From assembly GCF_024700885.2 (NCBI RefSeq), contig NZ_CP117016.1: a stretch of 64,000 nucleotides of DNA; one strand, 5' to 3'. Shown one piece after another: positions 19,162 to 45,733 of the stretch. A program made the translations under genes and the position numbers. The notes under the pieces were generated by a model. That model did no database searches, was not told the origin of the DNA, and saw nothing but the letters and a program-made list of their open reading frames with translations. The stretch is from Escherichia coli. Lineage in GTDB: Bacteria; Pseudomonadota; Gammaproteobacteria; Enterobacterales; Enterobacteriaceae. Numbering within the stretch: the stretch's first letter is position 1; every line of letters begins with the position of its first letter.

Positions 19162-21837
19162 TTAAGCGGATTTCTTCGCTTTTTTCTCAGCTTTAGCCGG
19201 AGCGGCTTCTTTTTTCGCTGCAGTTTCACCTTCTACATAATCACGACCGTAGTAGGTATCCAGCAGAATCTGTTTCAGCTCGGAGATCAGTGGGTAACGC
19301 GGGTTAGCACCGGTGCACTGGTCATCGAATGCATCTTCAGACAGTTTATCCACATTCGCCAGGAAGTCTGCTTCCTGAACGCCAGCTTCACGGATAGATT
19401 TCGGAATACCCAGTTCAGCTTTCAGCGTTTCCAGCCATGCCAGCAGTTTCTCGATCTTAGCAGCAGTACGGTCGCCCGGTGCGCTCAGACCCAGGTGGTC
19501 AGCAATTTCAGCATAACGACGGCGAGCCTGCGGACGGTCATACTGGCTGAATGCAGTCTGCTTGGTCGGGTTGTCATTCGCGTTGTAGCGAATAACGTTA
19601 CAAATCAGCAGGGCGTTTGCCAGACCGTGCGGAATATGGAACTGGGAACCCAGTTTGTGCGCCATTGAGTGACATACACCCAGGAAGGCGTTCGCAAACG
19701 CGATACCCGCGATAGTTGCTGCACTGTGAACACGTTCACGCGCTACCGGATTTTTAGATCCTTCGTGGTAGGACGCTGGCAGATATTCTTTCAGCAGTTT
19801 CAGCGCCTGCAGAGCCTGACCATCAGAGAACTCAGATGCCAGTACAGAAACATAAGCTTCCATGGCGTGAGTTACTGCGTCCAGACCACCGAAAGCACAC
19901 AGGGACTTCGGCATGTCCATAACCAGGTTGGCATCGACAATCGCCATATCCGGGGTCAGCGCATAGTCTGCCAGCGGATATTTCTGACCAGTAGCGTCGT
20001 CAGTTACAACCGCAAACGGAGTGACTTCAGAACCTGTACCAGAAGTGGTGGTGACAGCGATCATTTTCGCTTTCACGCCCATTTTCGGGAACTTGTAGAT
20101 ACGTTTACGGATATCCATAAAGCGCAGCGCCAGTTCTTCGAAGTGAGTTTCCGGATGTTCGTACATGACCCACATGATCTTCGCGGCGTCCATCGGGGAA
20201 CCACCACCCAGCGCGATAATCACGTCTGGTTTGAAGGAGTTTGCCAGTTCTGCACCTTTACGAACGATGCTCAGGGTCGGGTCAGCTTCTACTTCGAAGA
20301 AGACTTCAGTTTCAACGCCTGCTGCTTTCAGTACGGAAGTGATCTGATCAGCATAACCATTGTTGAACAGGAAGCGGTCAGTCACGATGAGCGCACGTTT
20401 GTGGCCATCAGTAATCACTTCATCCAGCGCGATTGGCAGAGAGCCACGGCGGAAGTAGATAGATTTCGGAAGTTTGTGCCACAACATGTTTTCAGCTCGC
20501 TTAGCAACGGTTTTCTTGTTGATCAGGTGTTTCGGACCAACGTTTTCAGAGATGGAGTTACCACCCCAGGAACCACAACCCAGAGTCAGGGAAGGTGCGA
20601 GTTTGAAGTTATACAGGTCACCGATACCACCCTGAGAAGCCGGGGTGTTAATCAGGATACGAGCCGTTTTCATTTTCTGACCGAAGTAAGAAACGCGAGC
20701 CGGTTGGTTATCCTGGTCAGTGTACAGGCAAGAGGTATGACCGATACCGCCCATAGCTACCAGTTTCTCTGCTTTTTCTACCGCGTCTTCGAAATCTTTA
20801 GCGCGGTACATTGCCAGAGTTGGGGACAGTTTTTCATGTGCGAACGGTTCGCTTTCATCAACAACGGTCACTTCACCGATCAGAATCTTGGTGTTTTCTG
20901 GTACAGAGAAGCCTGCCAGTTCAGCAATTTTATAGGCTGGCTGACCAACGATAGCCGCGTTCAGCGCACCGTTTTTCAGGATAACATCCTGAACAGCTTT
21001 CAGCTCTTTACCCTGCAACAGATAGCCGCCGTGGGTTGCGAAACGTTCACGTACTGCGTCATAAACAGAGTCAACAACAACAACAGACTGTTCAGACGCA
21101 CATATTACGCCGTTGTCGAAGGTTTTGGACATCAGCACAGATGCAACTGCACGTTTGATATCAGCAGTTTCATCGATAACAACTGGCGTGTTACCCGCGC
21201 CTACACCGATAGCTGGTTTACCGGAGCTGTATGCGGCTTTAACCATGCCCGGACCACCAGTCGCGAGGATCAGGTTGATGTCTGGGTGGTGCATCAGTGC
21301 GTTAGACAGTTCAACAGAAGGTTGATCGATCCAGCCGATCAGATCTTTCGGAGCACCGGCAGCGATAGCAGCCTGCAGAACGATATCAGCCGCTTTGTTG
21401 GTTGCATCTTTTGCACGCGGGTGCGGGGAGAAGATAATGGCGTTACGGGTCTTCAGGCTGATCAGCGATTTGAAGATAGCAGTTGAAGTCGGGTTAGTGG
21501 TCGGAACGATACCGCAAATAATACCGATTGGTTCAGCGATAGTGATGGTACCAAAAGTGTCGTCTTCAGACAGAACACCACAGGTTTTTTCATCTTTATA
21601 GGCGTTATAGATATATTCAGAAGCAAAGTGGTTTTTGATCACTTTATCTTCGACGATACCCATGCCGGATTCGGCAACGGCCATTTTCGCGAGTGGGATT
21701 CGAGCATCTGCAGCAGCCAGAGCGGCGGCGCGGAAGATTTTGTCTACTTGCTCTTGAGTGAAACTGGCATATTCACGCTGGGCTTTTTTTACACGCTCTA
21801 CGAGTGCGTTAAGTTCAGCGACATTAGTAACAGCCAT
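19162..21837 (-). CDS. adhE: bifunctional acetaldehyde-CoA/alcohol dehydrogenase
   Basis: 891-aa ORF with N-terminal aldehyde dehydrogenase and C-terminal iron-ADH domains ([20 protein letters not shown]...). Confidence 0.97.
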
Positions 21838-41834: not shown

Positions 41835-42389
41835 TTATTTTAAGGAAAGCAACTGCTCTACGGTCATATTTTTAATTGCGCTCCGGTTTACAAGAGTCCA
41901 GCCTTGTTGCTCCAGATAAAACAGGAAGGTATCCAGGGTGCAGACCATTGCGCCGTCAGGAACGGTTTCAGTGAATTTGATATTGCCGTGTTCGTCGAGA
42001 CGGATAACCAGGGTGCGTCCGTCCCCGTGAATCATTTTGTCGGGAGACGGGGCGTTATTCTGGCGCAGTTCAGCTTCCATGCGGTCGAACTCAGCAATGT
42101 ATGCCTCTTTAAATGCAGCGGCTTTTTTGCCAGTGAAGCCCATCACCAGGAAAACGAAGCCGTTTTTGGTGATTTGGTACATTGGGAGTTTGCGCCCGGT
42201 TGAGTCGGTGTATTCGCTCGACACAAAATTGTGCTCAGTGAATTTTGCTGAACAGTCCAGATTGCGAATTTTATCCAACACTCGTTCGTGGCGTTTGCCA
42301 AAGAACTCGGCGATCGCAACAGACGTAGTGACAGCGCGACCATTTTCGATGGTTACGTCAGGGTGAGAAAGGGTAAGGATAGTAGCCAT
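41835..42389 (-). CDS. Rha-family phage regulatory protein
   Basis: ORF 41835..42686; the segment from the Met at 42389 (MATILTLSHPDVTIENGRAVTTSVAIAEFFGKRHERVLDKIRNL...) resembles the Rha family; the N-terminal extension in the ORF track is probably not translated. Confidence 0.65.
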   Translation of the reverse strand: MATILTLSHPDVTIENGRAVTTSVAIAEFFGKRHERVLDKIRNLDCSAKFTEHNFVSSEYTDSTGRKLPMYQITKNGFVFLVMGFTGKKAAAFKEAYIAEFDRMEAELRQNNAPSPDKMIHGDGRTLVIRLDEHGNIKFTETVPDGAMVCTLDTFLFYLEQQGWTLVNRSAIKNMTVEQLLSLK

Positions 42390-43253
42390 GATGGCAGCCT
42401 CCGCGATGAATTTGATTAACTCACCACCGAGGTTTTCCACGACCATAAGGGTGGTGAGACGTACAGGGGTGGAAATACCGGTCATCACGGAACCCGGCCA
42501 GCCTTGCGGCTGCCCTGCACGCCCCACCATAATGCGAATGTGGCTGTGCTTAACGCATAAAAAAACCGCCTGAGCGCGGTTATGCGCCGTGAATGATTTC
42601 GGGTTTCCACGCCCGGCACCCGTTTTATGAGGTGCAGGTGCACTATAATTCCACCCGTTCTGGTTTTCAATAGCTACATTCAACATTTTCTCTACCTTTC
42701 ATCACCGAAGTGAACTTTGTTGATGCGGTGCCTGGTGCCTCCAGGTGATGTTAACCAGTTAACAATTAACGCCGGATACAGAGAATCCACCCATAACACT
42801 GTTTTTGGTTTTAACTGTTCCGCGTGCGCTGAGCCGCATTCACCGCATCACAAAATTCACTTTAAAAAGGGCGGCAGAGCAGTCACGGAGTAAAACTGAT
42901 ACCGCCAAAAGTCACCAGAAAATTGATAACAGAGGGCGTTGCAGCGGAGTTGTCACTTAAGCGTATGGTCAACCTGACAACCCGGTGTCCTCAACGGGGG
43001 AAGGAATAACCCCGCCATACTTACCGCCGCGCCATTTCGCGGAGTGCCACAACCGGAAGCGCACGGTCGAACTAAATTTAACGACACCGTACAGAGAGAC
43101 CAATTTCGCCGTGCGCTTTCGCGTTATGCCCTGACTTTTCAGGGACATATCCTTTCAGTAAACTGTCAGTGCCGGATGTTCACCCGTGTCCGGCGCACGC
43201 ACTCCACCTGACCCGTGGAGAACTCCTTAATTACCAACCCTCAGGAGGGTGAA

Positions 43254-43905: not shown

Positions 43906-44138
43906 CAGTCAGTGTTTCTGGTTAACCAGCGACGTGCGCCAGCTTCAGTTTTAAACGTTTTGCTTCTGGTATATGTCATCGCGGTAAACGTGCCGTCCTG
44001 GTTGGGAAACACGCCGCATACCAGAGATTCGTTGTTGCCAAGCTCGATAGTATCCATGCTGACCTCATTTCCCCTTAACGCCGGGGTAGCGGAACAAAAA
44101 CCTGCTGCATAGTTATTAAAGTTGAACCCTGCCGTCAT
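43905..44138 (-). CDS. hypothetical early-left protein (first gene downstream of the putative PL)
   Basis: 77-aa ORF directly downstream of the operator-containing promoter region. Confidence 0.5.
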   Translation of the reverse strand: MTAGFNFNNYAAGFCSATPALRGNEVSMDTIELGNNESLVCGVFPNQDGTFTAMTYTRSKTFKTEAGARRWLTRNTD

Positions 44139-44239
44139 GTTCTTACGCCTCGGGCTGGCTACTTACCCCCTGACCACTGCTTGGTAACTCGAAGTATTGC
44201 CCGGCGTTCTGTGGGGCGGGGTGGGTTGGTATGTTGTTA

Positions 44240-44270
44240 AGGTAACAAGAGTTACCTTTCGAGTCAATAC
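44240..44270 (-). promoter_or_regulatory. putative PL/OL: -35 TTGACT with operator palindrome GGTAAC-N4-GTTACC
   Basis: On the minus strand TTGACT (44262-44267) followed by palindrome ggtaacaagagttacc (44241-44256); same half-site as the operators at the cI-cro junction. Confidence 0.45.
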
Positions 44271-44297
44271 AATGTTGCAAAAGGTACATTTGAGGGC

Positions 44298-44325
44298 ATA
44301 AAAAACCCGCAATGAATGCGGGTTC
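44298..44325 (-). terminator. terminator immediately downstream of the repressor gene
   Basis: On the minus strand, stem aacccgcattcattgcgggtt followed by TTTTTTAT. Confidence 0.65.
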
Positions 44326-44329
44326 TGAC

Positions 44330-45004
44330 TCAGTCTAAGTATTGATGTATTTGTGAAACTTTACCTTTAATGGTGTAACCACCATTCAGTTCGATGGGTT
44401 TGTAAAGCGGATTCAGTGACAACAGATAGATGTTTGGTCCGTCAATCGCAACTTTTTTTAGTGTTACGTTTGGCGTTCCTTCCAATTGGATTAAGATTAT
44501 TTTTCCCACCAGTTCTCTAATGTTACTTGAGCATGGTGTGATCAGCACGGTAGATCCGTCGGGGATGGTTGGGAGGCCGTTAGAGTTTGTCATCGCATCT
44601 CCCTCAACATGCAATAAAAAAGAGTTTTCAGCGGTTTTTGTCATGACATCAACCCAGTTCTTAATACCAGGAATCTTGGTTACTGGACAACTCATATCCC
44701 AATAACCAGCCTGTTCCCACGTTAAAACGGGCAACCGGGCGATGTTGTCACTAATGTAAGGGTACTGATTCAGACGCAGATCATCGGTTTTATCGTGACC
44801 GTCCTTTCCATAAAGAATCCATTCAGGAGATTTGGAAAGCAATTTTGACAGTAGATACAAATTCTCACCGTCAGGTTTTGAAGAGCCATTTTCCCATTTT
44901 GTTACGGATACACGAGATATGCCGATTGCTTTCGCAACCTGCTGTTGGGTTAATCCAACGTCTTTTCGACGATTCCGAATACGTTCGCTGATAGTGTTTT
45001 TCAT
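44330..45004 (-). CDS. cI: CI-like prophage repressor (HTH-XRE + S24 LexA-like peptidase domain)
   Basis: ORF 44330..45103; HTH (VGLTQQQVAKAIGISRVSVTKWENG) and C-terminal autocleavage domain; start placed at the Met at 45004 so operators stay intergenic (alternative Met at 45046). Confidence 0.75.
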   Translation of the reverse strand: MKNTISERIRNRRKDVGLTQQQVAKAIGISRVSVTKWENGSSKPDGENLYLLSKLLSKSPEWILYGKDGHDKTDDLRLNQYPYISDNIARLPVLTWEQAGYWDMSCPVTKIPGIKNWVDVMTKTAENSFLLHVEGDAMTNSNGLPTIPDGSTVLITPCSSNIRELVGKIILIQLEGTPNVTLKKVAIDGPNIYLLSLNPLYKPIELNGGYTIKGKVSQIHQYLD

Positions 45005-45068
45005 GTAACCAATGTTACTACCAAGTGATGTTGCTATGGTTGACATTGTTATGTAACTATTGTTACCC
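45005..45068. promoter_or_regulatory. putative OR/PR/PRM region with GTAAC-N4-GTTAC operators
   Basis: Palindromes gtaaccaatgttac (45005-45018) and gtaactattgttac (45053-45066); perfect -35 TTGACA at 45040-45045 facing the cro-like gene. Confidence 0.5.
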
Positions 45069-45095
45069 TTCTGCTCGAAATAACAGGAGAGTTTT

Positions 45096-45311
45096 ATGTT
45101 CAAAGATGATGTTCTGCGCTATTTCAAAAAAAAGCGACTAGTAGCTGAGGCTCTTGGAATTTCACATGTGGCTGTTGTGCGGTGGAAAGCAGTTATTCCC
45201 AAACTTCGCGCAATGGAACTGGATGAAATTACTAACGGTGAATTGAAATACAACCCAGAACTTTACAAGAAGCAGGATAGCACCTCGAACGAAGGAAAGA
45301 ATGATTCATGA
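45096..45311 (+). CDS. Cro-like HTH regulator
   Basis: 71-aa ORF with AGGAGA Shine-Dalgarno; HTH (KKRLVAEALGISHVAVVRWK); divergent from the repressor. Confidence 0.65.
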   Translation: MFKDDVLRYFKKKRLVAEALGISHVAVVRWKAVIPKLRAMELDEITNGELKYNPELYKKQDSTSNEGKNDS

Positions 45312-45733
45312 AAATCAAGCATGAACACATCCGCATGGCGATGAATGCCTGGGCGCATCCGGACGGCGAAAAAGTACCGGCTGCGAAAATTACCAAAGCG
45401 TATTTCGAGCTGGGAATGACGTTCCCGGAACTGTATGACGACAGCCATCCGGAAGCCCTGGCCCGTAATACCCAGAAAATTTTCCGTTGGCTGGATAAAG
45501 ACACCCCTGATGCTGTTGAAAAAATGCAGGCTCTGTTACCGGCGATCGAAAAGGCGATGCCGCCTTTGCTGGTGGCCCGTATGCGCAGCCACAGTTCTGA
45601 ATATTACCGTGAGATCGTCGAACGGAGGGATCGGCTGGTGAAGGATGTCGATGATTTTGTTGCGTCAGCGGTTGTTTTGTATGACCAGATGAATCGCGGC
45701 GGCCCGGCAGGGAATGCTGTGGTGATGCACTAA
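45308..45733 (+). CDS. hypothetical early protein at the cII position (possibly YdaT-like)
   Basis: 141-aa ORF translationally coupled to the cro-like gene; family assignment is from memory only. Confidence 0.4.
   Translation: MKIKHEHIRMAMNAWAHPDGEKVPAAKITKAYFELGMTFPELYDDSHPEALARNTQKIFRWLDKDTPDAVEKMQALLPAIEKAMPPLLVARMRSHSSEYYREIVERRDRLVKDVDDFVASAVVLYDQMNRGGPAGNAVVMH

Follow-up and report, generated by a model that had tools for sequence, protein, structure and literature searches.

A Probable Lambdoid Immunity Switch of the P22 c2/Cro Type with Putative GTAAC-N4-GTTAC Operators in Escherichia coli Prophages

Introduction

A cI-like repressor gene and a divergent cro gene lie close together in the window (the whole 64-kb stretch of E. 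coli DNA that was analyzed), and one palindrome is repeated around them. The locus raises two questions: whether these palindromes are the operators of an immunity switch, and which of several in-frame codons starts the repressor. The genes that the argument needs first are:

44330-45004, minus strand: repressor gene, 224 aa, with an HTH_3 N-terminal domain and a Peptidase_S24 C-terminal domain
45096-45311, plus strand: cro, 71 aa, P22_Cro family (PF14549, E = 2.9e-16)
45308-45733, plus strand: YdaT-family gene in the cII position (PF06254; RefSeq "toxin YdaT family protein")

The locus has the marks of a lambdoid switch, namely an HTH plus S24 repressor, a divergent cro followed by a cII-equivalent, and repeated operators at PR/PRM and PL. 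Judged from sequence comparison, it is very probably such a switch, of the P22 c2/Cro type, with a DNA specificity of its own and a 224-aa repressor translated from 45004. The architecture is known from P22/21 and lambda; the operator specificity and the cassette were not found described in the literature searched.

Occurrence of the Palindrome

Three exact copies of GTAAC-N4-GTTAC are present in the 64-kb window (44242-44255, 45005-45018, and 45053-45066), and all of them fall in 830 bp around the repressor gene. The mean expected number is 0.06, and none of 100 dinucleotide-preserving shuffles of the window reached three. A previous sequence-only reading had reported one palindrome at three places in the immunity region, which these exact matches bear out; its title spoke of a half-site, but each 14-mer is a complete operator of two half-sites. 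With one mismatch allowed, the window gains just three more sites, scattered at 19294, 40621, and 47890. These were rejected as operators, since about 1.2 are expected by chance, their matrix scores are low, and their positions are non-regulatory. A LexA box was also dropped as the identity of the palindrome because the motifs differ.

The compared loci comprised repressor homologues at 89, 88, 70, 66, 52, 52, and 46% identity and five sequenced phages at 36-43%. Eleven loci, the window and ten relatives whose repressors are 42-89% identical, have the helix 3 sequence (S/T)RV(S/T)(V/I)TKW. With at most one mismatch, the motif recurs in these 11 loci between the -35 and -10 elements of PR and at the repressor ATG (GTTAC-ATG). 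A weight matrix was built from 32 sites, all from relatives and none from the window, and scored over 63,981 window positions. The exact copies took ranks one to three (44242, 24.9 bits; 45053, 24.3 bits; 45005, 20.1 bits), and rank four went to 44274-44287 (11.7 bits; the best background position scored 5.6). Two-fold symmetry is kept across the 32 sites. The 98.3%-identical E. coli variant (L002) has 20 differences, none of them in the operator cores, a number too small to be informative. A search of genome contigs with the repressor gave no close relative; it turned up just an HTH fragment of 41% identity in a Ruminococcus MAG. Six exact operator strings returned no paper in a full-text literature search, and a literature search with a looser motif returned nothing relevant.

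Right Operators and Promoters

The features to the right of the repressor gene are:

45053-45066: OR1, GTAAC-TATT-GTTAC, exact match (24.3 bits), between PR -35 and -10
45005-45018: OR3-equivalent, GTAAC-CAAT-GTTAC, exact match (20.1 bits), adjoining the repressor ATG
45030-45043, minus strand: possible weak OR2, TCAAC-CATA-GCAAC, overlapping PR -35, 6/10 core matches
45040-45069, plus strand: PR candidate, -35 TTGACA (45040-45045), 18-nt spacer, -10 TACCCT (45064-45069)
45301-45318: probable YdaT (CII-equivalent) site, ATGATT-N6-AATCAA, at the junction of the cro stop and the ydaT start

As had been proposed, OR1 lies downstream of a plus-strand TTGACA that faces cro. Positions T45040, T45041, C45044, T45064, A45065, C45066, and T45069 of the PR candidate are invariant in the 11 loci. 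PR and PL are candidate promoters read from conserved hexamers. A strict sigma-70 scan of 44000-45400 returned zero promoters; PR and PL fail it because each -10 matches the consensus at only 3/6 positions. Translation of cro would use the Shine-Dalgarno sequence AGGAG at 45085-45089.

In the proposed mechanism, a dimer of the 224-aa repressor would bind the 14-bp GTAAC-N4-GTTAC operators, and Cro would bind the same sites. Occupation of OR1 would block rightward cro-ydaT transcription. The 45005-45018 site would serve negative autoregulation and would be the target through which Cro shuts off repressor synthesis, because it adjoins the ATG and holds the likely PRM -10 (TAACAT, 45017 to 45012). 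The motif counts, the conserved positions, the covariation with the recognition helices, and the comparison of start codons are observed; that the proteins bind, which sites fill first, where the promoters start, and that the mRNA is leaderless (discussed below) are inferred from them.

The distance from OR1 to the ATG-proximal site is 48 bp in every relative locus. The distances of the OR2 candidate to OR1 and to the OR3-equivalent, 23 and 25 bp, give a lambda-like spacing, but the candidate is absent from the 25 best matrix scores in the window. Its "AC" at 45031-45030 is invariant in the 11 loci, which suggests a residual middle half-site, and the equivalent half-site is GTTAC, GTAAC, or GGTAC in phages 733R5 and AH07 and in L004 and L006. 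The 45030-45043 site may thus be a weak OR2 on account of the invariant AC and the matching halves in these four relatives. Another OR2 candidate, at 45021-45034, scored -11.7 with the matrix (rank 827) and was rejected.

The ATG-proximal operator adjoins the ATG in 10 of the 11 loci, and in L009 one nucleotide separates them. Each of the 11 loci has an invariant TAAnnT within this operator, even L008 (Hamiltonella), whose half-site is degenerate. The TAAnnT lies 7 nt upstream of the ATG, which all 11 loci use as start codon. The T at spacer position 2 is likewise invariant at this operator, whereas it varies in OL1. The PRM candidate has no recognizable -35, and none of the candidate repressor starts has a Shine-Dalgarno sequence. 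We lean toward a PRM transcript that is leaderless or nearly so, as in lambda cI, which would fit this pattern. Such leaderless repressor genes are documented for lambda cI and for CP-933P paaR2 (PMC8630535). Relative to a presumed PRM start at 45004, the operator centers lie at about -7.5, -32.5, and -55.5. These positions differ from lambda's, so autoactivation of PRM cannot be inferred.

The best-surviving alternative accepts the operators but derives the repressor from a longer transcript, begun, for example, at a YdaT-activated PRE-type promoter in or beyond cro or at a promoter near OR1, and treats the ATG-proximal site as a roadblock or a translational feature. We regard it as a serious possibility, though clearly the less probable one. 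In lambda, a long PRE transcript is a further source of cI, and the proposed PRM has no recognizable -35. In addition, ATGATTCATGAAAATCAA (45301-45318) is the only match in the window with at most one mismatch to TTGATT-N6-AATCAA; it probably marks a PRE-equivalent control point at the junction of cro and ydaT, which is also where PRE lies in CP-933P. In CP-933P, the YdaT site (OM) was footprinted at the equivalent location, the end of cro (PMC9986795). Against it stand a TAAnnT that persists even where the half-site has degenerated, a spacer T that is fixed at this operator and free at OL1, and an ATG present in every locus with the operator adjoining it in nearly all. Leaderless lambdoid repressor genes have precedents, and the longer-transcript and leaderless PRM routes can coexist.

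Repressor Start Codon

RefSeq/PGAP annotates a 238-aa product from 45046 in all RefSeq genomes examined. The sequence-only reading had instead favored the Met at 45004 over the longer open reading frame, and the starts of homologues, three informative relatives, and the pattern of conservation all support that choice. Homologues of 219-221 aa start at a Met aligned to 45004. In the alignment with P22 c2, residue 5 of the 224-aa repressor falls opposite c2 residue 6, and the solved chain of the P22 c2 N-terminal domain begins at the position equivalent to the 45004 start. Upstream of the aligned ATG, L008 and phage 733R5 have a stop codon and lack any in-frame start. In L009 a single additional base ahead of the ATG (a +1 shift) leaves the DNA motif intact but puts the conserved upstream DNA in another frame.

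A start at ATG 45046 (238 aa) or TTG 45103, which would make 45005-45018 intragenic or merely a stretch coding for Ser-Asn-Ile-Gly-Tyr, is improbable. It has the uniform PGAP call behind it, several relatives likewise keep the upstream frame open, and products of 238-240 aa are called for the 66-89% identical homologues; the general lack of a Shine-Dalgarno sequence does not discriminate between the starts. However, conservation of the 14-codon extension is confined to the stretches that encode the PR -35 (MST = TGTCAA) and the operator (NIGYM = AACATTGGTTACATG). Across the seven codons separating these stretches, the window agrees with the Salmonella protein of 70% identity at one, and 14 open codons arise by chance about half the time. 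A repressor start at 45004, with the RefSeq start 14 codons too early, is therefore well supported by comparative evidence.

Over-long 5' ends recur in this clade. The cI gene of phage ZF40 (L013, 599-1342) is annotated at 247 aa and overlaps cro, and the E. coli proteins WP_000103687.1 and WP_001394126.1 are annotated at 238 aa. In these genes, the operator and the PR -35 upstream of the true ATG by chance leave the frame open.

Left Operators, PL and Terminator

The following features lie beyond the 3' end of the repressor gene:

44242-44255: OL1, GTAAC-AAGA-GTTAC, exact match, highest-scoring window position with the matrix (24.9 bits)
44274-44287: OL2, a weaker site, GTTGC-AAAA-GGTAC (minus strand GTACC-TTTT-GCAAC), matrix rank 4
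44239-44267, minus strand: PL candidate, -35 TTGACT (44267 to 44262), 17-nt spacer, -10 TACCTT (44244 to 44239)
44300-44325, minus strand: intrinsic terminator 3' of the repressor gene, 9-bp stem with A-U/G-U as its last three pairs

The left palindrome had been placed at 44241-44256. It is present there as the 6-N4-6 sequence GGTAAC-AAGA-GTTACC, but the perfect palindrome is longer, and OL1 sits in the 8-N4-8 sequence AAGGTAAC-AAGA-GTTACCTT at 44239-44258. It had also been said to overlap a TTGACT on the minus strand. That hexamer exists, but the palindrome starts 6 nt downstream of it and overlaps the PL spacer and -10 instead, with OL1 covering the spacer and the first bases of the -10. The same placement relative to a TTGAC(A/T) -35, 6 nt upstream of the operator, is found in seven loci (the window and six relatives), where the left motif lies 73-89 bp past the repressor stop. 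The layout of -35, 6 nt, operator, and TAC(C/A)TT is conserved in these seven, the -10 overlapping the half-site. The PL candidate points leftward to ydfA/DUF1391 and the DicF/Rha arm. Repressor at OL1, aided by the weaker OL2, would block PL with the same geometry as at PR.

OL2 is a fourth site that had been overlooked, and we consider it a putative weak operator. Its center is 32 bp from that of OL1, and 6 nt separate it from the PL -35 downstream. The equivalent is a perfect site in L006 and L007, others retain one GTAAC half, and in several relatives OL1 is preceded by another OL site at 32-35 bp upstream. Phages 733R5, ZF40, and AH07 also have copies of the motif beyond the repressor gene. 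In L004 and L005 (Salmonella, 70%-identical repressor), both OR sites are kept and a different gene, of 204 aa, follows the repressor. No GTAAC-N4-GTTAC was found there within 260 bp past the repressor stop, and the left operator of these two loci is either farther off or missing.

The terminator was identified from conservation and folding. The last three pairs of its stem use the start of a 6-base U run, its fold is -16.7 kcal/mol (z = -2.9), and a GC hairpin with a T run occurs at the equivalent place in all relatives. A pattern-based terminator scan did not call the 44300-44325 hairpin.

Leftward of the switch lie a DUF1391/ydfA-like gene and then a DicF-containing arm, which includes:

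42869-42920, minus strand: DicF (Rfam, 75.8 bits)
42559-42635, minus strand: isrK (Rfam, 67.7 bits)
42447-42534, minus strand: C4 antisense RNA (Rfam, 81.9 bits)
41835-42386, minus strand: Phage_pRha (Rha/antirepressor-like) open reading frame, with C4, isrK, and DicF immediately upstream

The C4/isrK/DicF-Rha arrangement resembles a second immunity layer of the P1 immI or Gifsy isrK type. The PL leader (44140-44233) is GC-rich, with CCACCCCGCCCCACAGAACGCCGGGCAATACTTCGAGTTACC on the minus strand. It is 88% identical to the Rac prophage leader, and it is also conserved in L010 and L011 despite different adjacent immunity cassettes.

Immunity Cassette

Judged from where homology breaks off, the palindromes lie within an exchangeable immunity cassette. 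On the left, similarity to the K-12 Rac prophage stops at about 44233, only 5-6 bp short of OL1; on the right, similarity to other prophages starts again near 45252, within the 3' end of cro. The 1.18-kb region is present at 80% coverage or more in 701 of 5426 complete E. coli genomes, and roughly 1500 further E. coli genomes match the flanks only. The phage collection contained no record with this cassette; DNA matches were on the flanks only, and the best repressor identity was 43%.

Operator Specificity and Recognition Helices

Phage mEp390 (repressor 41% identical) has the same layout with GTA(G/A)G-N4-C(C/T)TAC, including GTAGGATTGCCTAC-ATG, and imm21 (phage DE3) has it with TTAAG-N4-CTTAA, which is the P22/21 operator type. 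The helix-3 residue before the conserved Trp is K in the repressor and R or K in Cro in the GTAAC group, G in both proteins in mEp390, and Q in both in imm21. This covariation is the strongest support, although indirect, for the view that both proteins read the palindromes. The proposal that the palindromes are the probable repressor operators gains from it, from their conserved positions in 11 loci, and from their place inside the swapped cassette.

It is very unlikely that some other protein, be it YdaT or a host factor, binds the palindromes, or that they are merely common promoter sequence with no specific binder, for although PR and PL share TTGAC-N6/7-GTAACTnTTGTTACCnT, so that the repeat could partly be duplicated promoter sequence, the ATG site is no PR/PL-type promoter copy and yet keeps both half-sites, the symmetry is conserved in the relatives, and the sites travel with the cassette and covary with the recognition helices of repressor and Cro. 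YdaT was dropped as the binder, since the site footprinted for its family differs from the palindrome and is found elsewhere, at 45301-45318.

Repressor Protein

The 224-aa repressor has both expected domains (PF01381, E = 3.5e-17; PF00717, E = 9.7e-17). The closest solved proteins are lambda cI 3BDN (E = 3e-14, full-length) and the P22 c2 N-terminal domain 1ADR/2R1J (E about 1e-12), and the closest to Cro is the P22 Cro structure 1RZS (E = 9e-12). RecA-inducible, self-cleaving repressors of the S24 family have a Ser-Lys catalytic dyad and an Ala-Gly cleavage site. The repressor retains the Ala-Gly cleavage site (residues 99-100) and the Lys-Lys pair (183-184). The nucleophilic Ser is gone: Ala137 (GDAMT; codon GCG, 44596 to 44594) aligns with S149 of lambda cI in G-N-S-M-T. 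Ala is also found at this position in L001, L002, P0001 (a 499-member cluster), P0002, P0004, and P0005; in the 70%-identical Salmonella homologue its codon is GCA. The catalytic Ser is kept in the ten other loci checked.

In LexA and lambda cI, replacement of this Ser by Ala abolishes self-cleavage. Because its catalytic Ser is Ala, the repressor should not self-cleave or respond to RecA. Induction of the prophage is predicted to be independent of RecA, and it may depend on antirepressors. A literature search on natural Ser-less prophage repressors found nothing useful.

Comparison with Known Systems

The switch is most like those of P22 and phage 21. Its repressor N-terminal domain resembles P22 c2, its Cro resembles P22 Cro, the operators share the 5-N4-5 geometry, and the S24 domain keeps the Ala-Gly site and the Lys. 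In the imm21 region of DE3, TTAAG-ATGT-CTTAA is separated from the c2 ATG by 2 nt, and PL has a site like it. However, the half-site here is GTAAC rather than TTAAG, and the repressor is only 36% identical to imm21 C2. Helix 3 reads SRVSVTKW instead of SNVAISQW in the repressor and SHVAVVRW instead of SDAAVSQW in Cro. A YdaT gene takes the place of cII/c1, and the catalytic Ser is Ala. Two strong OR sites are visible, and OL consists of one strong and one weak site.

Lambda shares the divergent PR/PRM with overlapping operators, PL operators beyond the repressor gene and terminator, full-length cI similarity including the QAG cleavage site, and the leaderless repressor mRNA proposed here. Unlike lambda's 17-bp operators, those described here have a 14-bp 5-N4-5 core. 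They are shifted by about 12 bp from the presumed PRM start, and OR2-style activation should not be assumed. No N gene is evident, and the OL-OR distance is only about 0.8 kb.

The cryptic prophages CP-933P (PaaR2/YdaS/YdaT) and Rac (RacR/YdaS/YdaT) share a YdaT-family gene in the cII position and a TTGATT-N6-AATCAA-like site at the end of cro, and the leader left of PL resembles that of Rac (88% identity). The repressor here is of the cI/c2 type (HTH plus S24) and not PaaR2/RacR, and Cro is of the P22_Cro type. Among studied switches with a YdaT gene CP-933P is the nearest, and its operators have the consensus GTTTAGTAA (PMC8630535), which differs from GTAAC-N4-GTTAC.

In phages vB_EcoS-733R5, Pectobacterium ZF40, and Pantoea AH07, GTAAC-N4-G(T/G)TAC recurs at matching positions, among them GTAACATTGGTTAC-ATG. 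Helix 3 is SRVSVTKW in 733R5 and AH07 and SRVTITKW in ZF40, near-identical to the repressor here. In contrast, their repressors are 42-43% identical and keep the catalytic Ser, the middle OR half-site is clearer, and there are two OL sites. No description of their operators was found in the literature searched.

Biological Significance

The analysis defines the putative operators, promoters, and repressor start of an immunity type that occurs in about one-eighth of complete E. coli genomes and is without a representative sequenced phage in the collection searched. It also corrects a start codon that RefSeq has propagated (WP_000103687.1 and relatives). The importance is modest, and no new principle is involved. 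Two predictions follow, cross-immunity with phages of the 733R5/ZF40 type and SOS-independent induction resulting from the Ser to Ala change.

A more speculative proposal, which we offer tentatively and would not count on, is that GTAAC-N4-G(T/G)TAC specificity is clade-wide, reaching down to 42% identity, and forms a cross-reacting "super-immunity" group that includes a cleavage-dead Ser137Ala branch in E. coli. If true, the group would span phages of E. coli, Salmonella, Pectobacterium, Pantoea, and Hamiltonella, and a prophage in 13% of complete E. coli genomes would be blind to RecA. Its induction, if any, would then come through antirepressors, either from its own C4/isrK-controlled Rha module or from those of co-resident prophages.
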